NCBI GenBank assembly: GCA_964345005.1
Contig: CAYFPQ010000001.1
Coordinates: forward strand, 38,751-102,750
Reading direction: 5' to 3'
DNA: 64,000 nucleotides
Origin: an uncultured Victivallales bacterium
Lineage (GTDB): Bacteria > Verrucomicrobiota > Kiritimatiellia > UBA8416 > JABMPJ01
Below the pieces are notes generated by a model. That model was not told the DNA's origin and made no database searches. It saw only the letters and a program-made list of their open reading frames with translations. Both the position numbers and the translations under genes were made by a program. Below, piece by piece: positions 7,915 to 27,915 of the stretch (positions are counted from its first letter, which is position 1; each line of letters begins with the position of its first letter).

Positions 7915-7992
7915 GAGTATGTGGTCTGTGGGCGGGGGAGGTCAAGGATGGGGAGGAAATCTCGCGCGGAGGCGCAAGGTGGAGAGCTGGGA
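7915..7992. repeat. copy of a composite dispersed repeat (shares the 24-mer GGGGGAGGTCAAGGATGGGGAGGA with 25395-25418)
   Basis: Identical 24-mer at 7932 and 25395, and similar flanks '...tgggattatga...'. Lies between the DegT start and the HEPN stop. Confidence 0.5.
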
Positions 7993-8409
7993 TTATGACT
8001 GGGGCAGGAATCCGTTTGCGACGAGATATTGCTCTGCTGCGGTGAGTATGTCTTGGGCATGGCCAAGATCTGCTCTGGCATCCGCCTCATCAATGCTGAC
8101 ACCGATGTCATAGTCGCCTGTCTGCCGCTCGCGGAACAGGCGCGCTATCTTCTTGCCAAAATCCTTTGGGAATATGCCTGATACAACGAAATGCTTGCCG
8201 AATTCGGCAATGGTGCCACTGTGTGTGGAACAGGTGATGTCTCTGCTGAGTAGCAATGCCTCCAACGCATAGAAAGCAGTGTAATAGGCACGGGAGGCAC
8301 CGAAGTCGTAGTCACCCGCATCCACATCACGCTTTGCAGAAGCCATCGCTCGGCGTCCTTTGGTCAGCAAAGCTTGCAGTTGACTAGCCAGCTCGGGCGA
8401 AGGGGTCAT
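7993..8409 (-). CDS. HEPN domain protein (toxin-like partner of the upstream MNT)
   Basis: 138 aa. HEPN-type helical protein with 'R...AYYTAFYALEALL' and Rx4-6H-like features. Overlaps the MNT gene by 4 nt. Confidence 0.8.
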   Translation of the reverse strand: MTPSPELASQLQALLTKGRRAMASAKRDVDAGDYDFGASRAYYTAFYALEALLLSRDITCSTHSGTIAEFGKHFVVSGIFPKDFGKKIARLFRERQTGDYDIGVSIDEADARADLGHAQDILTAAEQYLVANGFLPQS

Positions 8410-8744
8410 ACAGGTACGCCTTCCTTCTCAATGTTCATGAAAAGTGGGTCAAACTTGCGGCCACGGGCAGTCGATTCGCTTGTCAAAAAGGCGGCCATGA
8501 CAACGCCAAACTGGTACAGCATTTGGCCCGCAATCTCATCGATTGCGTCTTTCATGTTGCGATTGACTTCGTCGACCACCACCAAGAGGTCATAATCGGA
8601 GTCGGGCTTGGCGTCCCCACGTGCACGTGAGCCAAACAGCACAATGCGTTTCAGGTGGCGGCCGAATTGTGCTTGGATACTGCCTCGGATGCGAGAGAGC
8701 ACCTGTGCTTGTTCGGCATGGTCATGTGCGCTTGTTTCAACCAT
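8406..8744 (-). CDS. nucleotidyltransferase (MNT) domain protein, HEPN-MNT module
   Basis: 'LFGSRARGDAKPDSDYDLLVVV' is the polymerase-beta-type NTase GS...D.D motif. 112 aa. Confidence 0.8.
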   Translation of the reverse strand: MVETSAHDHAEQAQVLSRIRGSIQAQFGRHLKRIVLFGSRARGDAKPDSDYDLLVVVDEVNRNMKDAIDEIAGQMLYQFGVVMAAFLTSESTARGRKFDPLFMNIEKEGVPV

Positions 8745-8856
8745 GTGTCTAGAGTGTCACACGCCCCGTTTCGGGTCAACGGCAAGATAAGCGATATCTG
8801 GTGGACGATTGCATGGATGAAATGCGAAGGTGAGCCGCAACGAAGGGGACAACGTG

Positions 8857-8940
8857 ATGCGTGAGCGGAATGCTTTGCTGTGGGCTGGAGTCGCAGCGCT
8901 TTTCTTGGTGGTGCTGCTCTCTGTGTTCTGGGAGCAGTAG
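8857..8940 (+). pseudogene. duplicated 5' fragment (27 codons + stop) of the YfhO-like membrane-protein gene that now starts at 9935
   Basis: 'MRERNALLWAGVAALFLVVLLSVFWEQ*' versus the intact N-terminus 'MRKRCFSRRAGVAALFLVLLLSVFWEP...'. About 85 bp of DNA is repeated, including the ATG. Confidence 0.6.
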
Positions 8941-9060
8941 TGGGTCTGGTTGCGAGCCGGAGATCAGAGATCAGAGTTCAGAGGGCGTAAGTCTGTAGCC
9001 GGAGCGGGAGTAAGAGGGGTCTCGTGCCCTCCGTCGCACGAGGCTATGGAGCGCGGGCCG
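8941..9060. repeat. composite dispersed repeat: heptamer array (GAGATCA/GCCGGAG units) plus the hairpin motif CTCGTGCCCTCCGTCGCACGAGGCTATGGAG
   Basis: 7-nt periodic units at 8956-9020. The hairpin-containing motif recurs at 12596-12630 and, in variant form, at 25500-25540. Confidence 0.6.
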
Positions 9061-9147
9061 AGATGCCAAGATGCAGAGCAGAAGAGCGGCACACGTTGGG
9101 AACAGGCACTTGTGGGCAGACGTCCGATTTGCTAGTCTCGATGCGTT

Positions 9148-9477
9148 ATGAGAGAGGTCGGAGAAGATGGTCTTGTCGAGGAGTTTGCCCGGCGGGTGCG
9201 AGCGGCCTTGCGTGACAAGGTTGCCGCCGTGATCTGGTTTGGGAGTCGGGTTCGTGGGCAGGCGCAAGAGGGTTCTGACTATGATCTGTTGGTGCAAACC
9301 CATCAGCCGATCAGTGCGACGGACCGTCATGCCGTAACCGATATCTCTATCGATCTCACCGCGCAATACAGGAAGTTGCTGGATGTGCACTATGCGGATG
9401 ACCGAAGAATGACCCCGAGCGAGGGAGTCCTGAGTCCTTTCCGTCTGACGGTCTTGCAGGAAGGGGTTCGCGTGTGA
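9148..9477 (+). CDS. nucleotidyltransferase (MNT) domain protein (second HEPN-MNT module)
   Basis: 'IWFGSRVRGQAQEGSDYDLLVQ' NTase motif. 109 aa. Overlaps the downstream HEPN gene by 4 nt. Confidence 0.8.
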   Translation: MREVGEDGLVEEFARRVRAALRDKVAAVIWFGSRVRGQAQEGSDYDLLVQTHQPISATDRHAVTDISIDLTAQYRKLLDVHYADDRRMTPSEGVLSPFRLTVLQEGVRV

Positions 9478-9878
9478 CGCTCTCGGATGAAGATCGTGCA
9501 GCCCTTATCTCGCAGCGACTAAGCACTGCTTCAGAGATGCTCGCCGATGCCGAGGTCCTTCTGGAGCGCGGATCTCTGCGAAGCGCCGCCAACCGCGCCT
9601 ACTACTGTGCTTACCACGCCCTCTCTGCACTCGCGATCAGTAATGCCCGGATCACAAAGACACATAGGGGCATCATTGGTTTCTTTCACTCGGAGTTTGT
9701 CTCAAAGGGCGTTTTCGACCGGCGTTTTGGACGTGCTGTCCAGGAGGCCTTTGAGGATCGCACCGAAGCCGATTACGAGGATATGCCGGATCTTGATCCT
9801 GATCAGATTCGGTGCCGACTGTCGGATCTCGGTGATCTTATCGTTCAGATTCGCGAGTACGTATCGGGTCGAGACTGA
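9474..9878 (+). CDS. HEPN domain protein (second module)
   Basis: 134 aa. 'RSAANRAYYCAYHALSALAIS...' matches the HEPN gene at 7993-8409 in architecture. Confidence 0.8.
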   Translation: MTLSDEDRAALISQRLSTASEMLADAEVLLERGSLRSAANRAYYCAYHALSALAISNARITKTHRGIIGFFHSEFVSKGVFDRRFGRAVQEAFEDRTEADYEDMPDLDPDQIRCRLSDLGDLIVQIREYVSGRD

Positions 9879-9934
9879 CATCTGTCTGCTTCCACAAATA
9901 CACACCATTGGAGCTGGTGAGAGGGCTACTTGGT

Positions 9935-12589
9935 ATGCGCAAACGATGCTTTTCGCGGCGGGCTGGAGTCGCAGCGCTTTTCTTGGTGCTGCTGCTCTCT
10001 GTATTCTGGGAGCCGTTGAATGGAGGGCGGTCGCTATACACAGGAGATTCGAATCTCGGCATCATCATGGCTCGGAAGGCCGGGCTGCCTGAACGTTGGT
10101 TCGGCGGTTGGGGAACACATGTGCTGCTCGGAGGTGCGGGCAGCACGCCGCTTACGCTGAGCCGGATGATGCACTGGTGGTTGCCTGCGGAGACATTCAA
10201 CGATCTGTCGTATGGTCTTTGTCTTCTTGTCGGCGCGCTATTGCTTGGGGCGTTTCTTCGGTTGCGGGGTGTTGGGTTTGTCGGAGTATGCCTTGCGGGG
10301 TTGGCAGCTTTCTGGACGGGCTCCAACCTGACGCTTCTCTATCCGGGGCATCTGGAAAAGTTCTTCTGTGTGATGTTGGGGACGGTGGTATTGGTGTGCC
10401 TGGAGAAGCTGGTCCTCACGCGACGGTGGCTGTGGGGGGGGCTGGCTGGTGGGGCTCTGGGCGGGATGTTTCTGGAGCAGCAGGATGTGGCGCTGTTCAT
10501 GGGGATCTTTCTGGGGGCGTATGCGGTGTATGCGATGCTGCGGGAGCAGCGGTTGCAGGAGGGCGGAGGTCAGAAGTCGGAAGTCGGAGGTCTGAGAAGA
10601 TCTGTGCGGTCACTAGGGGCTCTTGCTTTGCGTCTTGGACCGGTGGTGGCGGTGGCATTGTTGCTTGTGGGGCCGATTGTTGGGAAAACGTATCGGACGA
10701 AGGTTACGGAGACGGCTTCGGTTGGTGAAGGCGCCGGTGAGCAGCAGAAATGGGAATTCTGCACGCAGTGGAGTCTGCCGGTCGAGGAGTCACTGGATTT
10801 CATTGCTCCCAATTTCTTCGGGATCAGATCGGGCGCTCCCGCAGGTCCGTATTGGGGGCGGACCGGGCAATCGGCGGGATGGGAGCAGACGAAGCGGGGG
10901 CTGCGTAATCTGCGTACGGAAGGGATCTATATCGGGGTTATCCCGGTAGGGTTGGCGCTGCTCGGGGTGCTGTTGGCTCTGCTGGGTGGAGCAAACGAAG
11001 GCAATGAGAACACCGAACAGCCAACAAGGAACACCCAACTCCCAACGAACGGAAGAAGATGGGATGCGATCTTCTGGGGGGTAGTGGCGCTGGTGACGTT
11101 GCTGCTGTCGTATGGAAAGTTTGCGCCTTTCTATCGGTGGTTCTGGCAATTGCCGATGGTGCATCCGATTCGGAATCCCAACAAGCACCTGCACATGTTC
11201 CAGATTGCCATCGGCGTTCTTGCAGCGTTTGGTGTGGACGGTTTGCTGCGGGGGCAGTGGGCTGAGACAAGGCGTGGACGAGCGATCGTTTGGTGTGGTG
11301 CCGGGCTGTTTGTCTTGGCTGCCGTCGGGATGTTCATTGGCAGCGGGTTTACTCAAGGAACGAGTGGCGCTCTGGTGCAGGGGTTTATGAAGAACGGCTG
11401 GGGGCAGGCTGCTCCGGTGATCGTGCAGAACATGATTCGGGCGCTGGTGCATGGCGGGTGGATGGCGGTACTTGGATGTACTTGTGTTGCAGGGGTGGTG
11501 CTGGGAAGGATGGGAATGTTCTCGCGCAGAGGCGCGGAGGCGCAGAGAGGGAAATGGATCGGTGTTGGATGTGTTTGCGCCTTGGCCGTGGCGGTTGCAG
11601 CGGATTGCGTGTGGTATTCGCGTGATTACGTTAAGACGGTGGATGCCGATGCGGTTGTGGGTGAAAATGCGGTGACAGAGTACCTGAAGGAGAACCTTGG
11701 CTCACAGCGGGTGTTGTTCTTCTCTCAGTCGGGGTTCTACAACCAGTGGCTCTCAACGCTCTTTCGTGCGCATCTGATACCGTCACTTAACGCACCTTCA
11801 ATGGAAAGGCTGAGCAAGCAGTATCAGGAGTTTCTCGACACTGTGGGCAAGAATCCGCTTCGGCTTTGGGAGCTTGCAGGGATTCGGTATGCACTGGGGC
11901 CGGTGCAGGTCTGGTCGCAGATTCAAGGGCAGCCTGAATGGAAAGAGGCCTTTGAGCCAGTCATGGGGTTCAATGTCTTTCAGCGAAAGGGCGGCGTGGG
12001 TGTTGAGCCTGTGAGATCCGGACAGACGCCGCAGCATTTGGTTCTTAAGTACAAGCGGGGGATGGACAGGTATACCCTGGTGCCGTCTTGGCGGAGTGTG
12101 CCTGATGATATGGCTTGTGCAGAATTGGTGAAGGCGGGGTTTGATCCGCACACAGAGGCTTTGATGTCACCGACGTTTGCTCAAGAAATACCTGTTGGCG
12201 ATGCGACATCGCCCCCAGGGCGTGTAGATATTCTGAAGGAGACAGTTTCGTCGATGCGTGTCAAAACGCGGGCGCAAGGCGCACAGCTGATGGTTGTCAG
12301 TCAGCTCTATGATCAGGACTTCTGGGCAACTGTGGATGGTCAACCGGTACCAGTGGTGCGCTGTAATTTCTTGTGTCTGGGTGTTCCTGTTCCGGACGGC
12401 GAACATGATGTGGTTATTCGGTACCGCCCAAGTCTAGCGGGTTTCTTCGTCCAAGTGACTGGGGTGCTGGCTGTATTGGGGGCGGCGGTGGGCTTGGTGT
12501 TGTCAAGGAGGCCCCTCCGTCGCGCTGTGCGCTATGGAGGGCAAGCGGAGGCCGGAGGCCCGAGGTCGGAAGTCGAAGCAGAGAAGTGA
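9935..12589 (+). CDS. large polytopic membrane protein (YfhO-like / GT-C-like); function uncertain
   Basis: 884 aa with many hydrophobic segments and a large C-terminal soluble domain. Start set at ATG 9935; the track's TTG at 9908 gives an extension encoded by inserted DNA. Contains in-frame heptamer-repeat-derived segments at 10563-10596 (GGQKSEVGG), at ~10990-11050, and at the C-terminus (PRSEVEAEK*). Confidence 0.65.
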   Translation: MRKRCFSRRAGVAALFLVLLLSVFWEPLNGGRSLYTGDSNLGIIMARKAGLPERWFGGWGTHVLLGGAGSTPLTLSRMMHWWLPAETFNDLSYGLCLLVGALLLGAFLRLRGVGFVGVCLAGLAAFWTGSNLTLLYPGHLEKFFCVMLGTVVLVCLEKLVLTRRWLWGGLAGGALGGMFLEQQDVALFMGIFLGAYAVYAMLREQRLQEGGGQKSEVGGLRRSVRSLGALALRLGPVVAVALLLVGPIVGKTYRTKVTETASVGEGAGEQQKWEFCTQWSLPVEESLDFIAPNFFGIRSGAPAGPYWGRTGQSAGWEQTKRGLRNLRTEGIYIGVIPVGLALLGVLLALLGGANEGNENTEQPTRNTQLPTNGRRWDAIFWGVVALVTLLLSYGKFAPFYRWFWQLPMVHPIRNPNKHLHMFQIAIGVLAAFGVDGLLRGQWAETRRGRAIVWCGAGLFVLAAVGMFIGSGFTQGTSGALVQGFMKNGWGQAAPVIVQNMIRALVHGGWMAVLGCTCVAGVVLGRMGMFSRRGAEAQRGKWIGVGCVCALAVAVAADCVWYSRDYVKTVDADAVVGENAVTEYLKENLGSQRVLFFSQSGFYNQWLSTLFRAHLIPSLNAPSMERLSKQYQEFLDTVGKNPLRLWELAGIRYALGPVQVWSQIQGQPEWKEAFEPVMGFNVFQRKGGVGVEPVRSGQTPQHLVLKYKRGMDRYTLVPSWRSVPDDMACAELVKAGFDPHTEALMSPTFAQEIPVGDATSPPGRVDILKETVSSMRVKTRAQGAQLMVVSQLYDQDFWATVDGQPVPVVRCNFLCLGVPVPDGEHDVVIRYRPSLAGFFVQVTGVLAVLGAAVGLVLSRRPLRRAVRYGGQAEAGGPRSEVEAEK
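10563..10596. repeat. in-frame heptanucleotide tandem array (GGAGGTC AGAAGTC GGAAGTC GGAGGTC) inside a CDS
   Basis: Same GGAAGTC-type units as at 29384-29420, 29694-29721, 25419-25475 and 12546-12590. Confidence 0.7.
10990..11050. repeat. in-frame copy of the MITE-arm-like 7-nt-unit motif (gaacacc gaacagc caacaag gaacacc caactcc caacgaa)
   Basis: Shares the core CCAACAAGGAA with the MITE arms at 14900-14930 and with 35153-35189. Encodes 'NENTEQPTRNTQLPTNG'. Confidence 0.5.
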
Positions 12590-12700
12590 TATCTCGCGCC
12601 CTCCTTCGCACGAGGCTACGAAGGGCATACCACAACGCTGAGGCGCAAAGCAGGGAATAGGGACTGTGGGGCGGAAGTCCGAAAGCGGAAATCGGAGCCA
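12541..12700. repeat. composite dispersed repeat (heptamer array + CTCGCGCCCTCCTTCGCACGAGGCTACGAAGG motif + second heptamer array 12671-12700)
   Basis: Homologous to 8941-9060. The first 49 nt form the last codons and stop of the membrane-protein gene. Confidence 0.6.
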
Positions 12701-12732
12701 ACAGACGATCCTCCACCATCCCTTATTCGTCC

Positions 12733-13914
12733 TTGAAAAATGAAAGCCAAGCGTTCAATATTCAAGAAATGAAGGTTCGTAGAGACAGGTTGGAGTCGGC
12801 GGTTCGTGATGCGCTCAGGCGAGGGCGCTGCGTGGGACTCTCGGGTCCGCGACAGTGCGGCAAGAGCACGCTGGCAAGAGATATCGCGAGCCTGGAGTCG
12901 GCGGCTGCCTACTTCGACCTGGAAGACCCTGCGTCGGAAGCACGCCTGCAAGATCCAAAGCTAGCGCTACAGTCACTCCGGGGGCTGGTTGTTATCGATG
13001 AGATCCAGAGGCGCCCCGACCTGTTCCCGCTGCTGCGCGTGTTGCTGGATCGTGACCCGCTGCCAGCCAAGTTCCTTCTTCTGGGCAGTGCGTCACCGGA
13101 GCTGCTCCGAGGGGCATCGGAGAGCTTGGCGGGTCGGATCGAGTTCATCTCAATGAGTGGCTTCACACTGGACGAGACAGGAGATGACACCGCACGTCGG
13201 CTCTGGCAACGGGGTCGCTTCCCTCTGTCGTATCTGGCGTCAAATGACCATGACAGTATGAAATGGCGGTCAGCCTTCGTTCAGTCGTTCGTCGAGCGCG
13301 ATCTCAGACTTCTGGGGGTGGATCTGCCCCCCATGAGTGTACGGCGCCTGCTGACTATGCTTGCCCATTACCATGGCCAAACCTGGAATGCCTCAGAGAT
13401 AGGGAGAGCTCTTCAGCTATCGCACATGACCGTCAAGCGTTACCTGGACCTCCTCACCGGAGCCCTGCTTGTCAGACAGCTGCCTCCCTGGTTTGAGAAC
13501 GTGGGAAAGCGTGCAGTGAAGTCGGCAAAAGTCTACCTCAGAGACAGCGGGATATTGCACAGTCTCCTAGGGCTCGAGCAAATGGAAGATATGGAGAGCC
13601 ATCCCAAGCTCGGCGCTTCATGGGAGGGCTTTGCGCTTGAGATGCTCTTGGCGTGGAAGGGGGATGACAACGCGTTTTTCTGGGGGACACATGGTGGCGC
13701 CGAACTGGACCTCTGTTGGATGACCGGCAAGGAGCGCGTGGGGGTTGAGCTCAAGTACACAAGTCGTCCGGCTGTTACTCGCTCCATGCACATCGCCTTG
13801 GCGGACCTGAGACTCGATCATCTTTACGTCGTGCATCCCGGAACAGAGGACTATCCGCTCGCCGATCGGGTAACGGCAGCCAGTCTGGCAGCTATGCGTG
13901 GTATTTTGGGGTAG
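12733..13914 (+). CDS. ATP-binding protein, AAA_14 + DUF4143 family
   Basis: Walker A 'GPRQCGKST', Walker B 'VVIDEIQ', C-terminal '...VYLRDSGILHSLLG...' DUF4143 signature. About 50% identical to the paralogue at 16918-18084. Confidence 0.85.
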   Translation: MKNESQAFNIQEMKVRRDRLESAVRDALRRGRCVGLSGPRQCGKSTLARDIASLESAAAYFDLEDPASEARLQDPKLALQSLRGLVVIDEIQRRPDLFPLLRVLLDRDPLPAKFLLLGSASPELLRGASESLAGRIEFISMSGFTLDETGDDTARRLWQRGRFPLSYLASNDHDSMKWRSAFVQSFVERDLRLLGVDLPPMSVRRLLTMLAHYHGQTWNASEIGRALQLSHMTVKRYLDLLTGALLVRQLPPWFENVGKRAVKSAKVYLRDSGILHSLLGLEQMEDMESHPKLGASWEGFALEMLLAWKGDDNAFFWGTHGGAELDLCWMTGKERVGVELKYTSRPAVTRSMHIALADLRLDHLYVVHPGTEDYPLADRVTAASLAAMRGILG

Positions 13915-14252
13915 CTGACGATGCAAGAACTATGTGCGACACGATGACGCAAGTAGTCACCAACTGTCACAAATCTGAAGTCCCACTTTAGATCTGTCAT
14001 GGAGATGTACACAGAGCGCCGCGCGGGACGAACGCCCCGACTGTCGTAGGCGAGGCGGCCTCGCGGCTCAGGAATAGCTCGCCCCAGCTCTGAGGCCGTC
14101 TGAATCCACTCGTCAATGACGGTCTCTGCGTTGGCAAGCGCCTCATGGTATGTGCTGCCGTCAGCCATACAACCAGGGAGTTCGGGCACTTCAGCAACGA
14201 ACGCTTGATCCTCGTCGCTCCAGAAAATGATAATTTCATATCGGCTGGTCAT
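13851..14252 (-). CDS. hicB: HicB-family antitoxin (UPF0150 / RNase-H-like fold)
   Basis: N-terminus 'YEIIIFWSDEDQAFVAEVPELPGCMADGSTYHEALANAETVIDEWI' is canonical HicB. The ORF runs 133 aa and overlaps the 3' end of the ATPase gene, so the functional core may be shorter. Confidence 0.7.
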   Translation of the reverse strand: MTSRYEIIIFWSDEDQAFVAEVPELPGCMADGSTYHEALANAETVIDEWIQTASELGRAIPEPRGRLAYDSRGVRPARRSVYISMTDLKWDFRFVTVGDYLRHRVAHSSCIVSYPKIPRIAARLAAVTRSASG

Positions 14253-14254
14253 CG

Positions 14255-14400
14255 TTATTCCTCCAGATGGAGTCCATACTTCAGTATGATACCACGAATC
14301 TGTTTCACTTGGTATGGTTTTGCTTTGCTGTGTTTCGGTTTATGCCATGGTGGCGTCCAGGCTTGTGGCGGCCTCTGTTGGACGAGCGAGTCATTCTCGC
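14255..14400 (-). pseudogene. decayed HicA-like toxin remnant immediately upstream of hicB
   Basis: Minus-strand translation ends '...WHKPKHSKAKPYQVKQIRGIILKYGLHLEE*', aligning with the HicA C-terminal 'HPKKDIPIGTLKSILKQAGL' region. No start codon is present and the N-terminal half is degenerate, with a stop at 14471. Confidence 0.4.
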
Positions 14401-14480
14401 CGTCGCAGACCGAGAGCGGGAGGATTAATGTGTAGAAGCAAGTGCAGAAGTATGGCTGCTGTCCGTACTCTTACATACTC

Positions 14481-15201
14481 TTACACGTTGATCCTCTTTC
14501 TTTGGCCGACGTACTGTAGCTCATCGAGAAACATGACGAGTGCTGTGCCTGCTGCCGCCGCAGCCGTGCCGGCAGCTTGCAGGAGATCCTGTAGGTCATG
14601 TTCCAGATCGCCGTTGTCGGCGAGGCCCGGCTCTGGGGCGAGGTCCAGTCCCACTTCCAGATCCTGGTACTTGACCTTCAGTGCTTGTGCGAATCCAGCC
14701 AAGGCACGCAGCCCTCGCTGCGCCATGTCTCTGGCCTGTGCATGCTTGGAGAGTTTGATGAGCGCGATGCGCAGTTCAGGCGCCAGAAGGGCCGGTAACG
14801 AGCGGTTTTCCGGCGCTTCGGCCCGGATCCATGGCTGCAAGCTAGACCCTGTCCGAAAAGGGTTGGGACATCAGAAAGGGCGAATGACGGAGAGAATATC
14901 CAATATCCAACAAGGAATCTCCAATATCCAAGGTAAGACTTCGGTCGATACCGACGGAAACCGCGGAAGGTAGCGTGAAGTCCGGCAGAAGTTCCCCCCC
15001 TTGTAAATTGGATTTGAGTGTTGGCTGTTGGATATTGAGATTCCAAAGAGCGCAGATACCTTTTCGGACGACGTCTAGATAGTCGGGGTTGACGATGTGA
15101 TATAGAGGAATCTGTCGGGAGAGTTGCGCTACCAGTGTTGTCTTGCCAGACCCGTTTGGCCCGGCAAAAACTCTCAACCCAGGTATGCGCTCCGTTGTCA
15201 C
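14481..15201 (-). pseudogene. P-loop NTPase (ABC/RecF-type Walker A 'FAGPNGSGKTTL'; AAA_21-like) interrupted by a MITE insertion
   Basis: N-terminal 41 codons (15201-15079) carry the Walker A motif. The reading frame then enters MITE sequence. The C-terminal part resumes at 14840 and ends '...VMFLDELQYV...', a Walker B-like motif. Confidence 0.55.
14842..15078. mobile_element. MITE-like element, copy 1 (~237 bp; TIRs CTAGACCCTGTCCGAAAAGG / CCTTTTCGGACGACGTCTAG; arms built of 7-nt units)
   Basis: Near-identical to 36667-36908. Terminal inverted repeats of ~20 bp. Internal arms 'gaatatc caatatc caacaag gaatctc caatatc' and their complement. The track's spurious ORFs 'MESQYP(T/I)ANTQIQF...' occur in both copies. 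Confidence 0.8.
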
Positions 15202-15401
15202 CGGGGGATCTTGTAGGTGGGCTTTTTCGGTCTGACGTAGGCCTTCTCCAGTTCCATGACGGTTTCTTCGTGTCCTTCGGGCGAGCGCCGAATAATGCGT
15301 TTGCCTCGCTTGAAAGTCACGCTGAGCCCTCGTGCATATGCGTCACGTACGGCTGCGCGTGACGCTGTCTTGAATGCCTTGGCTATCTGTTGGCCTGTCA
15401 T
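15198..15401 (-). CDS. small basic protein (67 aa), translationally coupled (ATGA overlap) to the downstream P-loop NTPase; possible antitoxin-like partner
   Basis: The ORF ends 4 nt inside the ATPase start. No recognisable family. Confidence 0.35.
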   Translation of the reverse strand: MTGQQIAKAFKTASRAAVRDAYARGLSVTFKRGKRIIRRSPEGHEETVMELEKAYVRPKKPTYKIPR

Positions 15402-15652
15402 GAAGTGAACCTTAACATCGCGCTATGAGGGGTAAAGATGAAAGTGGTGTGGATTCATGTGCGAACGCCATGGGGCTTGCCTTTCGATAGCGACTGCGAT
15501 TCCTGCGATTCCGATTCCAACGAAACCGCTGGATCATACGAAGTCACTCTGCATCCTGACGAGAGTAGGCCGACCTTGTGTTTTCGAAATGCCAAAGAAA
15601 CGGAAATAACTGTGTTGCCTGTTTGCGTCTCTTATGATAGGGTGCTCCTGCG

Positions 15653-16801
15653 ATGAACGGAAGGCAACAGGGCTCGGGGAGAACGGTCATATGTCCTGGT
15701 GGTTACGAAGCGTACGTGCCGGATCCCCTTCCTCCTGAGATCGAACTCACTCCAGCCCTCCTTCGCTCGCTCTCCGATGCAGACCGCCTGCTGGGGAAGC
15801 TGGCCGGCGAGGGACGGGCGCTACGGAACCCGCATCTGCTTATGCGCCCCTTCATCAAGCAGGAGGCCGTTCTCTCAAGCCGCATTGAGGGTACGCAAGC
15901 CACACTTGGAGAGCTTCTGGCTTCCGATGCGGGGGCAACAGTGAGCAGGAGTCCTGCCGATTTGCGGGAAGTGGCGAATTACGTCACGGCCCTTGAATAT
16001 GGCATAGGCCGTCTATCTTCGCTCCCCCTGTCGCTCAGGCTTGTTGCCGAGCTTCACGGGAAACTGATGCAGGGCGTCCGAGGCGAGCAGATGACGCCGG
16101 GTGAATTCCGTCGCAGTCAGAACTGGATTGGGCCTCCGGGCTGCACGCTTCAAAATGCATCATACGTTCCGCCGCCCGTCGCGGAACTGATGTCGTGTCT
16201 GAGCGACTGGGAGACGTTCCTGCACGACCGCTCGCTCCCACCGCTGATCCAGGCGGCTCTCATGCACAGTCAGTTTGAGGCCATACACCCCTTTCTGGAT
16301 GGCAATGGTCGCGTTGGCCGGTTGTTGATCACGCTTTTCCTCGTGGAGCGGGATATTCTTCCAACGCCGCTTCTGTATCTTAGCGCTTTCTTCGAGGTCA
16401 CGCGTCGCGATTACTACGATCGACTCAATGGGGTCACCAGCAATGCAGCCTGGGAGCAATGGATTGAGTATTTCCTGAACGGCGTTGCCCGGATGTCTGA
16501 AGATGTCCTAGTGCGGGCCGAAAGAATCAACAACCTGTTCGAAGCATGGCGGAACCTGGCAGCGGGAAAGAGCAAGACCGCGCTGGAGATTCTTCACCTG
16601 CTGGAAGAGAATCCGTATTGCACGATCACAAAGACGGCAGAGAAGCTCGGAGTAGCCTTTACCACGGCTCAGCGTGGCATCGATCGCCTGGCAGCACTTG
16701 GGGTGCTGGAGCCGGTCGACGACGCAAGGCGGAATCGCGTTTTCTCTGCCCGGGAAGTCATGGATATACTGGATGCGCCTCCGGCTTTCGTTACGGCCTG
16801 A
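15653..16801 (+). CDS. Fic/Doc family protein (class II, with N-terminal inhibitory SxxxEG helix and C-terminal wHTH)
   Basis: Fic motif 'HPFLDGNGRVGR'. Inhibitory motif 'SSRIEG' upstream in the same polypeptide. 382 aa. Confidence 0.9.
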   Translation: MNGRQQGSGRTVICPGGYEAYVPDPLPPEIELTPALLRSLSDADRLLGKLAGEGRALRNPHLLMRPFIKQEAVLSSRIEGTQATLGELLASDAGATVSRSPADLREVANYVTALEYGIGRLSSLPLSLRLVAELHGKLMQGVRGEQMTPGEFRRSQNWIGPPGCTLQNASYVPPPVAELMSCLSDWETFLHDRSLPPLIQAALMHSQFEAIHPFLDGNGRVGRLLITLFLVERDILPTPLLYLSAFFEVTRRDYYDRLNGVTSNAAWEQWIEYFLNGVARMSEDVLVRAERINNLFEAWRNLAAGKSKTALEILHLLEENPYCTITKTAEKLGVAFTTAQRGIDRLAALGVLEPVDDARRNRVFSAREVMDILDAPPAFVTA

Positions 16802-16917: not shown

Positions 16918-18084
16918 ATGCATGGATATATAAGAAGAAGCGCTGAATCTGAGGTGTTGTCGGCTCTGGCACGATCACCTGCTGTAGCCATACTTGGGCC
17001 GAGGCAGTGTGGAAAATCCACGCTCGCAGAGCATATGTTGCGTGGAAGAGACGCCGTAAGTCTCGACCTACAGTCACGGCAGGACCTCGCCAAACTGGCG
17101 GAGCCCGAACTCTTCTTGGAGCAGCATCGGAGTCGCACGGTCTGCCTCGACGAGATTCAAAGACTCCCGGATTTCTTCACTATTCTGCGTTCTGAAATTG
17201 ATCGTGATCGTCGTCCGGGACGGTTTCTGATTCTTGGCTCTGCTTCCCGTGACCTGATCCGTCAGTCCAGCGAGACGTTGGCAGGCCGCATCGCGTATGT
17301 TCCGCTCACTCCGTTTCTGCTCCCCGAAGTGTCTTCCCGCGGCCCACTGTGGGACTTGTGGAGCCGAGGCGGTTTTCCTGAGAGTCTTCTGGCCTCGGAC
17401 GATGTGCAGAGTGCCGCCTGGCGGCGTGATTTCACGCAGACATTTCTGGAACGGGACATACCGGCCCTCGGGTTTTCGATACCGATGCCTGTCATGGATA
17501 GGCTCTGGCGACTACTTGCACACTACCATGGTCAGACGGCGAATTTCAGCAAGCTTGCCGAAGCAGCCGACATTTCCGTGCAGTCACTGCGTAAGTACCT
17601 GGCGCTTCTGGAGCAGACCTACATGTTGCGCATGTTGCCCCCCTACGAGGCGAATCTGAAGAAGCGCCTCGTGAAGGCGCCAAAACTGTACGTTAGAGAC
17701 AGCGGCGTCTTGCATTCCCTGTTGGAGATAGAGTCCTATGACCGTCTTCTTGGTCATAGCGTTGTGGGGGCATCCTGGGAGGGGTTTGCCTTGGAAAACA
17801 TCGTAGCTGGCCATCCGCTCTGGCGTTCTTCGTTTGTCAGGACGTCAAATGGCGCTGAGGTCGATCTGCTATTGGAGAGAGGGGGGATACGAAAGCTCTA
17901 CGAATTCAAGGCGTCCAAGGCGCCCAAACCTTCACGCGGTTTCCACCAACTGGTTCATGACCTCCTGCCTCAGTCTGCCGCCATTGTTGCGCCTGTCGAT
18001 GAGTCGTTTGCTATCGGGAAGGGCGTCCATGTTCTTACGTTGCTTGATGCGGTCGAAGGGCGCCGCGTGGGGCAGAGAGCTTGA
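16918..18084 (+). CDS. ATP-binding protein, AAA_14 + DUF4143 family (paralogue of 12733-13914)
   Basis: 'GPRQCGKST' ... 'VCLDEIQ' ... 'LYVRDSGVLHSLLE'. 388 aa. Confidence 0.85.
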   Translation: MHGYIRRSAESEVLSALARSPAVAILGPRQCGKSTLAEHMLRGRDAVSLDLQSRQDLAKLAEPELFLEQHRSRTVCLDEIQRLPDFFTILRSEIDRDRRPGRFLILGSASRDLIRQSSETLAGRIAYVPLTPFLLPEVSSRGPLWDLWSRGGFPESLLASDDVQSAAWRRDFTQTFLERDIPALGFSIPMPVMDRLWRLLAHYHGQTANFSKLAEAADISVQSLRKYLALLEQTYMLRMLPPYEANLKKRLVKAPKLYVRDSGVLHSLLEIESYDRLLGHSVVGASWEGFALENIVAGHPLWRSSFVRTSNGAEVDLLLERGGIRKLYEFKASKAPKPSRGFHQLVHDLLPQSAAIVAPVDESFAIGKGVHVLTLLDAVEGRRVGQRA

Positions 18085-18109
18085 CTGGGGTCATGGAGAA
18101 CGGAGTAAC

Positions 18110-19465
18110 ATGATGGGCATCAGGCAAACGATAAAGTCTCGCTTGGGGCCGCTGTGGTGGTATTCGGCGCTACAGTTTGTGTTCTCGAAAATTGAGAACT
18201 TGGTCAATCTGTTCGTCGGTGCCTTCTTGATGGTGGACTTGGTTGGCCAGGACGACCTCGGTGTAGTGGTTCCCTTCAAGATGATTATCGCTTTCGCGGC
18301 ACTGCCGATGGGCGTATTGACACGTACGGCCGTAAAGTTCATCAACGCATTCCATGTTGGCGAACAGAAGGGTGAGGTCAAGGCTCTGCTGCGGGACCTG
18401 GGTGCAGTGGCGCTGGTCCTGTCGATCTTTTCTGTCTTGGTGCTCTGGCTGGGGCAGGGGCCTTTCCAAGCGCGACTCAAGTTCGAGGATCCGCGTATCT
18501 ATTGGGTGATGGTAGCAACATTGGTGGTTTCTCTGTGGATGCCGGTGCTGGCCGTGGCGGCTCAGGGATTGATGCGCTTTCGGCATATGATCCTATCGAG
18601 CGTGGTCAGGCCACTGGTCTACCTCGTGCTGATGCTGATTCTGCTTAAGCAGTTCCAGTTAATGGGATATCTGATGGCCATGCTTGGAGCTTCATGTGCC
18701 GTGCTGCTGTATCTGCTTTGGTCGATCCGCGCGTACATCGGACCGGGAGTCAGGGCATTGAGCTATGGGGCGGAGTGGGGGCGGATTCGACGGTACGGTG
18801 TGAATGTTGGGTCCGTGACCTTGCTCCTTGGTTTCGCGGCGATCATTGAGCCGCTGACCATACGACACTTTGCATCGCGCGTCGACTCGGCCGCATACTA
18901 TGTGGCGTTCATGTTTGGGCAGATTCCTCTGTACCTGTCGGCGGCCTTCACGCCGTTTCTTTTCCCTTTGGTATCCCAGCGTTTTGAGAGAGGAGAGAAG
19001 ACGGATCATATGTTGATCCAGTCCGTGGTGGCCATGCTCGTTATCGGCGTACCTCTGCTGGTGTTCTTCATCTTTGGCGGGCGCTGGCTGTTGGGATTGC
19101 GCCTATCGTGGAGTCAATACGTGAGCTATGCTCCTCTGCTGTGGAAGATCGGTGTTGTTAGCATTCTACAGAGCCTGCTGATAGCGTTTATGGCTCATCA
19201 ACATGCGTGTAACCGGTTCCGGCACGTGCAGTGGTTTGTCGGTGTGCTCGTTCTGGAGATCGTTCTTCTCTACTTCTTCATGGGATGGCACGAGTTGCGC
19301 GGAGTGGTTCCGGGAGAGCTGTGGGAAACGGTCCAAGAAGTGGTGCAGCACAAGTTGGCGTTTGTCGTTTGGATGATGATTGGAACGAGGGCGCTGCTAA
19401 CTATGACTGCTGCATGGTGCTTCGTGAGGCAAAGACCCTTCTCCTCTACTCAGTTAATCGCGTGA
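18110..19465 (+). CDS. polysaccharide biosynthesis protein / Wzx-like flippase (MOP superfamily)
   Basis: 451 aa with ~12 predicted TM helices. Start set at the ATG directly after the preceding gene's stop; the track ORF from 17834 overlaps the upstream CDS. Confidence 0.65.
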   Translation: MMGIRQTIKSRLGPLWWYSALQFVFSKIENLVNLFVGAFLMVDLVGQDDLGVVVPFKMIIAFAALPMGVLTRTAVKFINAFHVGEQKGEVKALLRDLGAVALVLSIFSVLVLWLGQGPFQARLKFEDPRIYWVMVATLVVSLWMPVLAVAAQGLMRFRHMILSSVVRPLVYLVLMLILLKQFQLMGYLMAMLGASCAVLLYLLWSIRAYIGPGVRALSYGAEWGRIRRYGVNVGSVTLLLGFAAIIEPLTIRHFASRVDSAAYYVAFMFGQIPLYLSAAFTPFLFPLVSQRFERGEKTDHMLIQSVVAMLVIGVPLLVFFIFGGRWLLGLRLSWSQYVSYAPLLWKIGVVSILQSLLIAFMAHQHACNRFRHVQWFVGVLVLEIVLLYFFMGWHELRGVVPGELWETVQEVVQHKLAFVVWMMIGTRALLTMTAAWCFVRQRPFSSTQLIA

Positions 19466-21768: not shown

Positions 21769-21897
21769 GGATGTGTTTATAGCAGACGATTCAGGTAGAA
21801 GGAAGAAGGGAAGCCGCTTGCCTTTGGTCCGTGCGTATGTCTATTCTGTAGTCAAGATAGGCTTCGGTCGGGGAGCTTGGTAGGAAGGAGAGGCGCG

Positions 21898-25311
<3,414 letters not shown>

Positions 25312-25379
25312 CTATATGAAACAGCGTAGCAAATAGTCAGAATACATGAGTTCAAGAAAGCGTATGAGGTGGTGATTCG

Positions 25380-25575
25380 GTGGGGCTGTGGGACGGGGGA
25401 GGTCAAGGATGGGGAGGAGGTCGAAGGCCGGAAGCCGGAAGCCGGAAGCCGGAAGTCGGAGGGCGGAGATCGGAATGGCCCCAGGCATTCTGCTTGGGTT
25501 ATGATCCTCCGTCGCCCTGTGGGCTATGGAGGACTCGTGTGCGACTCCTTTGGGGTGCGGGGGAGGATGACCTGT
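25380..25575. repeat. composite dispersed repeat containing an (RGYCGGA)8 heptamer array (25419-25475)
   Basis: 'ggtcgaa ggccgga agccgga agccgga agccgga agtcgga gggcgga gatcgga'. Flanks match 7932-7955 and 27880-27900 ('cctttggggtgcgg'). Confidence 0.7.
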
Positions 25576-25577
25576 AG

Positions 25578-25712
25578 AAGTATCCGTCTCCGCTGCGCTA
25601 CGCCGTGACAAGCGTGTGGAAGCATGGGGCGGAACAGCATCAGGAAGAGCTGCTTGAGGATTGGAAACTTGCCGAGAAGCACGGGGATCTCAAGGCGATT
25701 GAGCCACTACGA
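25578..25712 (+). pseudogene. C-terminal remnant of a DUF4160 protein (partner of the downstream DUF2442 gene), 5'-truncated by the repeat
   Basis: '...RYAVTSVWKHGAEQHQEELLEDWKLAEKHGDLKAIEPLR*' matches the conserved DUF4160 C-terminus (HQEELLENWELA...IEPL). A stop lies immediately upstream and there is no start. Confidence 0.5.
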
Positions 25713-25724
25713 TAATACGTCGAT

Positions 25725-26024
25725 ATGTACTGGGATATCACAGATGCTGAATATGAGGCTGAGTACCGGATTCGTGTTCGTTTCCGTGATGGAAATTCTG
25801 GTGTTGTCGATCTCAAGCCGTTGATCGAGAAGGGAGGCGTTTTCAGCGCCCTGCGCGACATGGAGGCGTTCAGGGCTTTCTCTGTCGATCCCGAATGGCA
25901 TGTTCTGTCCTGGGAAGACGGCCGGATTGATGTTGCCCCCGAAACAATCTATGAAGAGGCAACCGGAGAGAACGTTCTTCCGCTTGTTGCGGAGAGCCGC
26001 GCTTCCTACGGCACTCAAGCATAG
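25725..26024 (+). CDS. DUF2442 domain protein
   Basis: 99 aa. 'YRIRVRFRDGNSGVVDLKPLIEKGGVFSALRD...' is typical DUF2442. In most genomes it is paired with DUF4160. Confidence 0.75.
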   Translation: MYWDITDAEYEAEYRIRVRFRDGNSGVVDLKPLIEKGGVFSALRDMEAFRAFSVDPEWHVLSWEDGRIDVAPETIYEEATGENVLPLVAESRASYGTQA

Positions 26025-26235
26025 GCGGCATCCCTTTCATCGTCTTTTTTTACGGTTCGTCCGCAGAATCTATGGGTGGGCAACGGCACCTGCACAATCA
26101 GGAAGTGATTGCGAGGCGCGGAGAAAGAGGTGCAAATCTTGCGAAGAACGGGCAAGATTATTCCGTAACAGAATTGGCCGGGTCGCATAGAGCGGTTAAG
26201 CAGGTCGTTTAAGAGTAACCGGGCAAGGGTGGCGG

Positions 26236-26370
26236 TTAAGCAATCGAGTCAATGTCGGTCGTGGAACAGTTGCCCATTCTGATCCAGATTACCTTGGGTG
26301 GGAATCCGATGAGGGCACTGCGATCACTGTAATCCGCATCCTTTGTCACGATGATGAAATCGTTGCGCGG
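26236..26370 (-). pseudogene. C-terminal remnant of a DUF5615 protein
   Basis: '...NDFIIVTKDADYSDRSALIGFPPKVIWIRMGNCSTTDIDSIA*' matches the DUF5615 C-terminus (…VTKDADF…PPKVIWLRLGN…). The upstream part of the ORF is not DUF5615-like. Confidence 0.45.
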
Positions 26371-26679
26371 GCGAACGCCCATAGTTGGATGTCGTTTGCC
26401 CGGGCCAGCCCGAGGTCCTTCCCCTCGCAAGTAAAGCCAAGCTTATGCCTGGCGCACCCTCGTCTCGATCGCCGTCGACTGAACTCGCATGCCACAGTTG
26501 ACTCACAATAAACTCGCGACCGCAGAAACCCAGGGGTGGCGGTTTACTAAGACCTCTGGCATTGAAGCTCAACCCGGGGCAATCTTGTACTGTATGCCAT
26601 TATGCAGATATAGATAAAATGGTCTTGATGTTGCTCGGATAAGCATTATGCTGACTTGTGTAAACGAAGGGAATAGACC

Positions 26680-27798
26680 ATGAATCCATTCAAGTATGGG
26701 CAAGTTGTGCGTGGACGCGATTTCTGCCCGCGTCCGGAGTTACAAACGGCTCTTGCGAGTCATGTGGAGTCACGGCAGAACGTCCACGTGACAGGAGAGC
26801 GACGCACTGGGAAGACGTCGCTTATTCTTGAAACAGTTTCGAAACTGAAGCTGTCTCTCATTCACGTCGACCTGTTTCAGGTTAAGTCGACGCATGACGT
26901 GTACATGAGGATGCTTGACGGGGTTCTCACCCACAACACTTCGACCGCTTTCGTCAAGAGGTTGATGCAGGGCATCGCTTCGTTGAGGCCGACCATGAGT
27001 TACGACCAAGTCTCGGGAGCGCCCTCCATCAGTATTGCCCCTTCTGAGAACGTCATGCCGGCAACCGTTGTTGGATTGCTCGATTTCATCAGAGAGAAGC
27101 TGGGCCAACGTGGGCTGGTGGTCTTTATCGATGAGTTCCAGGATGTGACCGAGCTGAAAGAAAAGGATGAGATGCTCGCGCTGATGAGAAGTCGAATCCA
27201 GTTACATGCGGATATCACCTATGTCTATGCCGGAAGCGTCAGAAGACGGATGGATGACATTTTCTACAATCCGGACAGCCCTTTCTACAAATCGGCCCTT
27301 CCCGTTAAGGTGGAGAGTCTCAACAGCCTGACATTCAGCAACTATCTGATGCAGCGCTTTGCATCCGGAGGAAGACCCGTTTCCGGTGAGATCATTGAAC
27401 AGATATTCGATCTGACTCATTCGAATCCCGGTGATGTTCAAGAACTCTGTAACGCGTTATGGGATGTGACGGCTGATGAGTCGGCCATTCGCGACGATGA
27501 CGTTGGCCGGGCAGTTATGGAGATCTTCATCAGGGAGAAGCCCTATTACGAACAGGTTGTCAGCGCGATCAGCGATACTCAGCTCAGGTTTCTGCGGGGA
27601 TTGGCTGAATTCGATGGCAAGCAGATCTACTCCAGAGCATTTCTTGAGTACACGGGAATCAAGCAGCCTGCGTCTGTTACGCGTGCGCTCAAGCGAATGG
27701 TGGATCTCAAAGTCGTCTATACCTATGGCAAGCAACACAAGTTCGCCAGCCCGTTCTTCCGGCTGTGGCTGCTCGACGCCGTAGGGGGCAAGTCTTGA
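26680..27798 (+). CDS. AAA ATPase of the PF01637 ('archaeal ATPase') type with C-terminal DUF234
   Basis: Walker A 'GERRTGKTS', Walker B 'VVFIDEFQ', C-terminal '...KFASPFFRLWLLD' DUF234 signature. Preceded by an AT-rich promoter-like region at 26580-26680. Confidence 0.8.
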   Translation: MNPFKYGQVVRGRDFCPRPELQTALASHVESRQNVHVTGERRTGKTSLILETVSKLKLSLIHVDLFQVKSTHDVYMRMLDGVLTHNTSTAFVKRLMQGIASLRPTMSYDQVSGAPSISIAPSENVMPATVVGLLDFIREKLGQRGLVVFIDEFQDVTELKEKDEMLALMRSRIQLHADITYVYAGSVRRRMDDIFYNPDSPFYKSALPVKVESLNSLTFSNYLMQRFASGGRPVSGEIIEQIFDLTHSNPGDVQELCNALWDVTADESAIRDDDVGRAVMEIFIREKPYYEQVVSAISDTQLRFLRGLAEFDGKQIYSRAFLEYTGIKQPASVTRALKRMVDLKVVYTYGKQHKFASPFFRLWLLDAVGGKS

Positions 27799-27834
27799 TG
27801 TGGCTGAGTAGAAGTGGGTAGGGTCAGATAATAG

Positions 27835-27915
27835 CATTCTCCCGTCTGGGTCGTGGGAGAGGGGCGGGGGGAGGGCTATGATGTGGCACCCCTTTGGGGT
27901 GCGGTAGGAAGAGGG
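27835..27915. repeat. partial copy of the composite repeat (shares 'cctttggggtgcgg' and 'ggctatgatg' segments)
   Basis: Similarity to 25540-25560 and 7960-7985. Lies adjacent to the DUF2283 stop. Confidence 0.4.

Follow-up and report, generated by a model that had tools for sequence, protein, structure and literature searches.

Hairpins, heptamer arrays and a two-copy block: separate small repeats around toxin-antitoxin-like genes in an uncultured Victivallales bacterium

Do the short repeats found beside small toxin-antitoxin (TA) genes delimit those genes as cassettes, or do they lie there for other reasons? This question is raised by a 64,000-nt stretch of contig CAYFPQ010000001.1 (assembly GCA_964345005.1, forward-strand positions 38,751 to 102,750) from an uncultured Victivallales bacterium, in which TA-like pairs and decayed genes lie among a hairpin motif, tandem heptamers and a short shared block. 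We refer to this stretch, 64 kb of the 134-kb source contig and the extent of our repeat census, as the window. An earlier note had described five sites (7915-7992, 27835-27915, and others near 9, 12.5 and 25.5 kb) as copies of one composite family combining all three features, with a copy beside every TA-like module. The five sites do not form such a family. They resolve into three separate modules, namely a 28-nt block, heptamer arrays, and a hairpin, which we regard as unrelated or only loosely related; the hairpins and heptamers are probably small repeats of the kind known as repetitive extragenic palindromic (REP) sequences or small dispersed repeats (SDR), housed in flexible DNA and carried as passengers at the junctions of inserted genes.

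Anatomy and distribution of the three modules

In a whole-window self-comparison, the pairwise matches among the five sites were short: 7933-7957 with 25394-25418, 9020-9046 with 12592-12618, and 12514-12540 with 25506-25532. One of the modules, a structured hairpin, measures about 30-35 nt and reads Y-CCTCCGTCGC-(apical stem-loop, short and covarying)-GCTATGGAGG-R-CARG. A covariance model of it, R1, built mostly from copies in other genomes, found four copies only in the window (H1 to H4; Table 1), all co-oriented with the local plus-strand genes; the hairpin variants GCTACGGCGG and GCTACGGAGG would need a model broader than R1. The 31-nt hairpin motif quoted in the earlier note has one exact match, at 9021-9051, with none expected in shuffled sequence. 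The hairpin comprises 11-13 pairs and includes one C/U mismatch and one G-U pair, both of which are conserved. H2 and H4 are predicted to fold stably (-20.8 kcal/mol, z = -3.6, and -21.1 kcal/mol, z = -4.3, respectively), and the apical stem of H4, GCCC/GGGC, is compensatory relative to the GCGC/GCGC of H2. The predicted minimum-free-energy fold of H1 is an alternative stem, CTCGTGC/GCACGAG (-15.4 kcal/mol).

Covariation among 121 aligned copies was strong: 97.9% of the cells pair, and none of 500 shuffles matched the observed covariation. The outer pair, joining position -1 to +2, is CG in 52 copies, UA in 46, AU in 3 and GC in 3, while the apical stem uses UA, CG, GC and AU pairs (at least four types) and closes loops of 3-4 nt. 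Positions that had not been selected for are conserved as well, with G at +1 in 116 of 123 copies, C at +3 in 104, and A at +4 in 87. The conserved 3' tail, G-R-C-A-R-G, has no 5' counterpart; no conserved tetranucleotide was present in the upstream flank, and CTAT/CTAC falls within the stem. When the unit is defined as positions -1 to +6, a length of 30 or 33 nt accounts for 77% of the copies, which may be what lets the hairpin fit into coding loops and RNA helices, P12 of RNase P RNA among them. A period-7 signal in the flanks keeps its phase across the hairpin, and the heptamers at -8 to -2 and +7 to +13 are identical at five or more of seven positions in 15 of 123 copies, compared with 2.3 +/- 1.5 in the null (maximum 8 in 1000 shuffles). 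None of the window copies was called a terminator, and no T-tract follows them. At gathering thresholds no Rfam 15 family matched anywhere in the window; relaxing the limit to E <= 10 still gave none on 7.8-13 kb and only chance matches on 25.2-28 kb.

We scanned a 596-Gb collection holding one genome per GTDB species for the pattern CCTCCGTCGC-N3-9-GCTATGGAG, and at least 120 loci carried it, compared with approximately 30 expected by chance (our own estimate, for uniform composition). Counts from other genomes, here and below, are among the matches listed, and open reading frames (ORFs) in those genomes were called by a crude longest-ORF rule. The hosts are mostly members of the Planctomycetes-Verrucomicrobia-Chlamydiae (PVC) group, including Verrucomicrobiota, Kiritimatiellia, Lentisphaeria/Victivallales and Planctomycetota; many copies also come from Patescibacteria and Bacteroidota, and a few from other phyla. 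A cultivated host is Verrucomicrobiaceae bacterium E54 (L107). Intergenic copies number 67 of 124, and a further 51 fall inside long ORFs, in both orientations. The genes flanking the intergenic copies are randomly oriented (++ 12, -- 17, -+ 13, +- 10), and the motif-oriented loci showed no significant GC-skew or replication-strand bias (59 positive versus 43 negative, p = 0.17). Two loci (L034 and L008) hold tandem hairpin pairs, both in direct orientation, and one copy constitutes the distal part of helix P12 in a planctomycete RNase P RNA. In four Bacteroidota loci (L014, L019, L037 and L072) the hairpin lies 5-8 nt past the 3' end of a tRNA or tmRNA gene, in all four on the strand antisense to the motif as written here. 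Viral contigs yielded the pattern in seven stretches only, and we therefore see no link to phages.

ENA project PRJEB17505 contains four short-read metagenome contigs of the same organism (L001-L004; 561, 589, 703 and 2185 nt). The last three of these carry the hairpin of the 25.5-kb site, and each begins inside the adjoining heptamer array or next to it; hairpins and heptamer arrays therefore probably fragment assemblies made from short reads.

Heptamer arrays, located by Tandem Repeats Finder together with a period-7 scan, occupy about 13 loci in the window, including in-frame positions in yfhO and rsmD and positions beside housekeeping genes. Three of the five claimed sites do contain arrays (at 8958, 12545/12663 and 25416-25475); as a distinguishing component of those sites the arrays fail, since about ten further loci carry them (10555, 10998, 14895, 15010, 29385, 29693, 35146, 35251, 36724, 36839, 37989, 38055, 44590 and 54921). 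The heptamer on the 5' side of H2, AGGAGGC, agrees at six of seven positions with the array on its 3' side. We read the arrays as locus-specific, microsatellite-like tandem repeats of spacers and permissive protein loops, the length of which changes by slippage. Some arrays occur as inverted partners. Within rsmD, the coding-region array and the leader array, 285 nt apart, are 80% complementary along 25 nt, and the mRNA could therefore pair over a long range, leader with coding region. In the acpP-fabF spacer, inverted arrays of the GAACATC/GATGTTC type (35146-35194 and 35251-35290) form a stem of approximately 40 bp with a loop of approximately 57 nt; units of this type recur at 10998-11046, within the yfhO loop, with 88% complementarity.

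The block shared by the first and fourth sites was quoted in the earlier note as the 24-mer GGGGGAGGTCAAGGATGGGGAGGA, and is indeed present exactly at 7934-7957 and 25395-25418, where shuffles predict none; it extends to 28 nt, with two copies only in the window. A promoter scan independently located a sigma-70-like candidate that overlaps the first copy, and the identical TTGACC-N18-CATACT precedes the orthologous DegT gene of L142, a related contig (2618-2670). The 20-mer GGAGGTCAAGGATGGGGAGG was found in seven stretches of the JGI metagenomes, all of them unrelated purine-rich coding sequence, indicating that the block is not dispersed. Gfo/Idh/MocA genes commonly precede DegT-type aminotransferases in sugar-modification operons. 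As the promoter-like site is conserved in L142, the block is absent elsewhere, and the second copy precedes a Gfo/Idh/MocA fragment, we read the 28-mer as a probable two-copy duplication of the promoter-proximal region of a DegT sugar-modification operon, and not as a dispersed repeat. The site at 7915-7992 contains this block alone, without a hairpin or heptamer array. Next to the block is a degenerate ATCTCGCGC...GGCGCAAGG motif that also brackets H3 (12590-12652) and follows the HEPN/MNT pair of the relative L144 (about 11822-11860).

The fifth site, 27835-27915, holds none of the three modules and no R1 match. It shares with the fourth site only CCTTTGGGGTGCGG (27891-27904, and 25548-25561), and its prominent feature is a plain GC-rich hairpin. 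This hairpin was considered as a terminator; a T-tract terminator was not called. The Rfam match at 27865-27901, to Acido-Lenti-1, is a chance match (14.9 bits against a cut-off of 37).

Insertions, gene remnants and repeat turnover

Homologues of RsmD and YfhO mark the organism as a verrucomicrobium and led to related contigs, and insertions were judged against L142 and L144. In L142 the genes for DegT, YfhO, orf423, GH172, Mem_trans, CoaD, RsmD and YceD follow one another in about 10 kb; the window needs 21 kb for that span (7905-29075). Judged from gene order, the comparison shows 7.9-28.4 kb of the window as a conserved backbone (DegT, YfhO, orf543, DUF2961, CoaD, RsmD) filled with accessory genes, whose entry would explain why the repeats are concentrated there. 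Four insertions (I1 to I4) were defined by synteny, and all three hairpin loci of the window, counting H2 and H3 as one, coincide with insertion or truncation junctions.

I2 left the original 5' end of yfhO as a remnant whose coding part is duplicated at 9935-10015 (91-96% over 54-65 nt). I3 opens with H2, H3 and arrays that replace the YfhO C-terminus: DNA-level similarity to L142 stops at 12486, and the last ~27 yfhO codons (RRPLRRAVRYGGQAEAGGPRSEVEAEK) are repeat-encoded, giving a C-terminus unlike that of all homologues. In L141 (3808-6428), an AAA_14/DUF4143 gene is inserted at the 3' end of Mem_trans, a site differing from that in the window, and the last 46 Mem_trans codons are duplicated around it (85% amino acid identity, 27 aligned residues). 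The duplicated target-gene ends of yfhO and Mem_trans suggest that a circle bearing a piece of the target integrated through one crossover, or that the mechanism was att-like.

Pfam upheld the gene calls for HEPN/MNT-1, MNT/HEPN-2, DUF2442, DUF2283 and DUF4258. The description of 25-26.4 kb as a region of decayed genes was borne out for the C-terminal fragments of DUF4160 and DUF5615, and less so for the Gfo/Idh/MocA N-terminal fragment, which is weakly supported. At the default threshold, neither the 45-amino-acid DUF4160 fragment nor the Gfo fragment matched Pfam; they were seen by homologue search and at a relaxed threshold, respectively. Over its last 28 residues the DUF4160 remnant shares 75% identity with the C-terminal end of P0152 (73 amino acids, PF13711). 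A possible orthology between the LamG protein of I4 and the Laminin_G_3 protein beside DUF2283 in L139 was considered; no orthology was found.

Table 1. Repeats, genes and insertions in the window.
Feature	Position	Strand	Remarks
H1	9022-9063	+	R1 40.2 bits, E = 2e-8; left junction of MNT-2/HEPN-2 insertion
H2	12508-12551	+	R1 44.5 bits; inside 3' end of yfhO ORF
H3, degenerate (CCTCCTTCGC...GCTACGAAGG)	12594-12635	+	R1 18.4 bits, E = 0.01
H4	25500-25543	+	R1 40.8 bits; between two gene remnants
Array, CAGAGAT type	8958-8984	+	degenerate continuation to 9019, resumes past hairpin
Arrays in yfhO, in-frame	10555-10597, 10998-11046	+	first encodes QEGGGQKSEVGGLRR
Array CGGAGGC/CGGAAGT	about 12544-12586	+	directly 3' of H2
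Array, CGGAAGT type	12663-12705	+	upstream of first AAA_14/DUF4143 gene
Array GCCGGAA	25416-25475	+	about 7 units
Array in rsmD, in-frame	29385-29420	-	+7 amino acids versus 77%-identical orthologue
Inverted partner array in rsmD leader	29693-29719		conserved in L141 (2572-2606)
Arrays between acpP and fabF	35146-35290		
Arrays after fabF			inside 236-nt MITE-like repeat
Arrays beside CsgG-like gene	37989-38085		
Array between two glycosyltransferase genes	44590-44615		
28-nt block, copy 1 (GGGCGGGGGAGGTCAAGGATGGGGAGGA)	7930-7957		
28-nt block, copy 2	25391-25418		upstream (minus strand) of Gfo/Idh/MocA N-terminal fragment; abuts heptamer array
Promoter candidate, sigma-70-like, TTGACC-N18-CATACT	7916-7945	-	upstream of DegT start codon (7905); promoter scan
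Degenerate ATCTCGCGC...GGCGCAAGG motif	7958-7985	+	downstream of HEPN-1
Plain GC-rich hairpin GCACCCC-TTT-GGGGTGC	27886-27902		between convergent ATPase and DUF2283 genes; fold -13.8 kcal/mol
Insertion I1			HEPN-1/MNT-1, in DegT-yfhO spacer
Insertion I2	8941-9934		hairpin/heptamer block plus MNT-2/HEPN-2, at yfhO codon 27
Insertion I3	12487 to about 18090		two AAA_14/DUF4143 genes, Fic, MITE-like repeat
Insertion I4	21769-28434		LamG protein, gene remnants, H4, ATPase
DegT	6643-7905	-	
HEPN/MNT-1	7993-8744	-	Pfam
Remnant of original yfhO 5' end	8857-8940	+	27 codons, MRERNALLWAGVAALFLVVLLSVFWEQ plus stop; native leader 8790-8856 aligns with L142
MNT-2/HEPN-2	9148-9878	+	Pfam; inserted at yfhO codon 27 versus L142
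YfhO-like membrane protein	9935-12589	+	
AAA_14/DUF4143 ATPase genes, two	12733-13914, 16918-18084		42% identical mutually; frame 5.6-kb insertion between yfhO and orf543
Gfo/Idh/MocA N-terminal fragment	25120-25272	-	PF01408 E = 0.036, below family cut-off; model positions 2-36 of 120
DUF4160 C-terminal remnant	25629-25715	+	last 28 codons plus stop; directly upstream of DUF2442
DUF2442, intact	25725-26024		
DUF5615 C-terminal fragment	26236-26430	-	model positions 46-87 of 110
DUF2283/DUF4258	27916-28358	-	

Orthologous sites in related genomes revealed turnover of the repeats. The rsmD loop reads SEVGGQRSEVGSN in the window, SEVAGQ in a 77%-identical orthologue and SSSAEASSFAKATEDESEGRRN in P0006, and the insert amounts to seven additional amino acids in the window and to none in P0002. 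In L139, which encodes P0006, this loop holds a 49-nt block with a 36-bit hairpin match, bracketed by TCGGAGG repeats, whereas L145 has a single TCGGTGG at that point; in this one comparison the two differ by a further 5 nt nearby, and deletion between direct repeats would equally give the filled and empty states. The loop arrays of yfhO recur in the 75%-identical orthologue P0122 of L142 (3372-3413 and 3864-3895); a 65%-identical orthologue has the hairpin-type peptide PPSPRLRRTSG, and homologues of ~40% identity lack the loops. Because relatives share the loops while their contents differ, the arrays appear to be old as sites and unstable as sequence. L139 and L140, whose RsmD proteins are identical, differ by 64 nt in the copy number of a tandem array between rsmD and coaD (L139 3676-3739; ACGGATGGGG units with a spacer of about 30 nt), and variation of such arrays from one close strain to another is thus directly seen.

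Other repeats were also present in the window. A 236-nt repeat has two copies that are 99.6% identical (14845-15080 and 36674-36909), and resembles a miniature inverted-repeat transposable element (MITE) that was active recently. Its terminal inverted repeats are imperfect (GACCCTGTCCGAAAAGG / CCTTTTCGGACGACGTC), CTAGA(TC) flanks it on either side, and two heptamer arrays lie inverted in its interior (AATATCC x5 / GGATATT). A 30-32-nt repeat, GGCTCGCTGGGGACAGCTCGCCCTACC, occurs in three direct copies and one inverted (36621-36652, 40077-40108, 53608-53639 and 53667-53696) adjoining fabF, glmM and thiI, and its copies at 53611-53696 form a hairpin with 39-nt arms that are 92% complementary. Finally, a 10-12-nt tandem motif (TACTCTTACA / ACGTGTAAGAGT) lies downstream of genes at 14466-14485 and 41385-41451, as well as in L141 (6432-6467), and is found in both orientations, 14473-14502 being inverted at 41371-41400 (93%).

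TA genes and the role of the repeats at junctions

We compared (i) the window spacers of at least 30 nt that border TA-like genes (9 of 39) with (ii) the remaining 30. Hairpins are present in two of the nine and in one of the thirty (Fisher p = 0.13), and heptamers in two and seven, respectively (p = 1.0); the proposed enrichment near TA genes was thus not detected in the window. The 12.5-kb site borders no TA module. In about 100 foreign loci, for which 150 flanking ORFs were tabulated, 39% of nearest neighbours were shorter than 150 amino acids, compared with 42% of control genes two positions further away. Pfam was run on the 73 of these ORFs of at most 200 amino acids, and the only TA-family matches were two PIN proteins and one of the MqsA/YokU type; the other scanned neighbours are ordinary, for instance ribosomal protein S16 and aspartate decarboxylase. 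In the comparison with relatives the MNT/HEPN pairs are insertions. Three related genomes keep DUF4258/DUF2283 close to CoaD/RsmD (88-90% and 65-74% amino acid identity), with no hairpin beside the pair in any of the three; the pair is therefore a stable resident and not a repeat-delimited cassette. Neither in the window nor among the scanned neighbours is there TA enrichment, and the repeats are not a dedicated border signal of TA cassettes. As they do not define such cassettes, they are of no use for delimiting or predicting them.

The reading that we favour, with some reservation, is that small repeats occupy DNA in which insertion is tolerated. Two MNT/HEPN pairs, two AAA_14/DUF4143 ATPases, Fic and the LamG protein were inserted into the backbone, leaving unconstrained junction DNA and gene remnants; the heptamers and hairpins, as selfish or neutral repeats, would be gained and lost between short direct repeats and would persist wherever they are tolerated. 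We infer both their mobile or selfish nature and their role as passengers, rather than causes, at the junctions. One of the two readings offered in the earlier note, a REP-type element settling in recombination-prone spots, fits the inserted backbone and the position of the hairpin loci at its junctions. Several points count against this reading. The three hairpin loci lie exactly at junctions (at the left end of the MNT-2/HEPN-2 insertion, at that of the 5.6-kb insertion after yfhO, and between the Gfo and DUF4160 remnants), a placement more specific than any intergenic DNA, if based on n = 3, and this coincidence could mean that the hairpin takes part in rearrangements. Among the window ORFs scanned, no mobilizing enzyme was identified. 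In addition, the exact conservation of at least 19 nt across phyla is unusual for a selfish repeat, and may point to a conserved host function.

A more specific proposal, which we find doubtful though worth stating, is that the hairpin is itself a cross-phylum mobile mini-element of ~30-35 nt, ending in Y at -1 and CARG at +3 to +6, that inserts between, or creates, 7-nt direct repeats, so that the arrays are its footprints. Cycles of gain and loss would leave duplicated heptamers behind, and the mover would be a host or insertion sequence (IS)-encoded activity common to PVC bacteria, Patescibacteria and Bacteroidota. If so, the hairpin would be among the smallest mobile DNAs known, and would offer an explanation for bacterial heptamer microsatellites.

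The other reading in the earlier note takes the repeat as the recombination or mobilization site of the cassettes. Under this explanation, by analogy with REP-mediated rearrangements or attC-like cassette capture, the hairpin/heptamer element would be a recombination substrate, and TA pairs and AAA_14/DUF4143 genes would enter and leave at or between its copies. All three hairpin loci fall on synteny-defined junctions or truncated genes, and the repeat opens the MNT-2/HEPN-2 insertion, which has a copy of the yfhO 5' end on either side; the HEPN/MNT pair of L144 lies elsewhere, yet is again followed by heptamers and a TCTCGCGC...GGCGCAAGG motif. However, each insertion has a hairpin at one border only, the right borders (9879-9934 and about 18085-18110) being without one, and a Pfam scan of most, though not every one, of the window ORFs turned up no recombinase, integrase or transposase. 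A core site of the GTTRRRY type is absent, the hairpin has ordinary genes as neighbours in about 100 loci elsewhere, the DUF4258/DUF2283 pair is passed on stably with no hairpin at its side, and the AAA_14/DUF4143 insertion of L141 shows a duplicated target end with no hairpin match at that locus. A function of the hairpin as a cassette recombination site is thus unproven, and we consider it unlikely.

We judge it similarly improbable that the hairpin acts in cis at the RNA level on adjacent genes, TA operons included, whether to terminate or process transcripts, to stabilize mRNA or to sequester Shine-Dalgarno sequences. The strong covariation, with its conserved G-U pair and C/U mismatch, would suit such a role, as would the stable folds (-21 kcal/mol, z about -4), the co-orientation of the four window copies with plus-strand genes, and the copies located 5-8 nt beyond tRNA/tmRNA 3' ends in Bacteroidota or forming part of P12 in RNase P RNA. 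Conversely, orientation is random across the 67 intergenic copies, and long ORFs contain many others, in sense or antisense; there is neither a T-tract nor an Rfam 15 match even at E <= 10, and the direct heptamers at the flanks, together with the apparent filled and empty sites, speak for insertion and not for a regulator that evolved in place.

Chance matching among G+C-rich, purine-rich low-complexity spacers, as suggested by in-window pair matches of 25-27 nt with blastn-short E values of only 0.003-0.013 (hairpin pairs) and by two of the five sites that share almost nothing with the others, is very improbable as a general account and is refuted for the hairpin and the arrays by the zero shuffle matches expected for the 24-mer and the hairpin motif, by three good copies scoring 40-44 bits against a model drawn mostly from other genomes, and by unselected positions conserved and covarying in 121 copies; it stands only for 27835-27915.

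The repeats add spurious low-complexity peptides (SEVGGQRSEV, RYGGQA) to predicted proteins, for which annotation pipelines for PVC bacteria and candidate phyla should account. Rfam lacks this hairpin, which several phyla conserve almost to the base, and searches of the accessible literature for its motif sequence and for heptamer repeats in PVC phyla returned nothing relevant.

Comparison with known repeat systems

One close parallel in behaviour is with the heptamer arrays known as short tandemly repeated repetitive (STRR) sequences and the SDR that are reportedly found in cyanobacteria. As in those systems, tandem heptamers specific to each locus lie in spacers, structured repeats of 20-30 nt are nested among them and enter genes and P12 of RNase P RNA, and the mobilizing enzyme is not known. 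The hosts differ, being Verrucomicrobiota/PVC, Patescibacteria and Bacteroidota rather than heterocystous cyanobacteria, and the sequences appear unrelated to STRR1-3; moreover, here one hairpin sequence is near-exact across phyla. The Rickettsia palindromic elements, said to be selfish sequences inserted in-frame in protein genes, at surface loops, and in structural RNA genes, resemble the hairpin in being palindromic and in lying within coding and RNA genes. Those elements are 100-150 bp long and confined to Rickettsia, while the hairpin is about 30-35 nt and linked to heptamer arrays.

Integron attC sites are also imperfect hairpins with unpaired bases, near small promoterless genes that are often TA pairs. 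Unlike attC, the hairpin has no GTTRRRY/RYYYAAC core, no integrase was found in the scanned window ORFs and no intI/attI, and modules carry at most one hairpin each and lie on both strands, with no co-oriented cassette array. Relative to a MITE, the arms can be read as terminal inverted repeats, and 7-nt direct repeats flank approximately 12% of copies; the arms are imperfect, the apical stem covaries, and no parent IS was found. Intrinsic terminators differ in possessing the T-tract that the hairpin lacks, and in orientation, which is random here.

REP sequences, and the mosaic and doublet forms derived from them (BIME and REPIN), are mobilized by REP-associated tyrosine transposases (RAYT), and serve as join-points of rearrangements and as insertion hot spots (Bertels & Rainey 2011, PMC3116915). 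The hairpin shares with them short, imperfect, dispersed palindromes, of which one strand folds better and which accumulate in spacers; at 20-40 nt, imperfectly palindromic and repeated (four copies in 64 kb), it has the dimensions of a REP. Unlike REPs, it is not strictly extragenic, with copies in the yfhO 3' end, the L139 rsmD loop, 51 of 124 foreign cases within ORFs, and an RNase P RNA. The flanking GTAG (CTAC) is absent, inverted doublets do not occur and window copies are direct, and REPs are species-specific whereas the hairpin is common to several phyla. No RAYT (Y1 transposase) was present among the window ORFs scanned.

Finally, intergenic direct repeats of the heptamer TAACTGA occur in Beggiatoaceae, Cyanobacteria and Bacteroidetes (MacGregor 2015, PMC4679880). 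They resemble the present arrays in forming heptamer arrays in spacers, in their patchy cross-phylum distribution and in having no known mechanism; however, TAACTGA is one fixed heptamer placed just upstream of start codons, whereas here the unit varies by locus and coding loops are occupied too. In behaviour the repeats match several known systems (STRR/SDR, the Rickettsia palindromic elements and REP/REPIN), and none of them by sequence.

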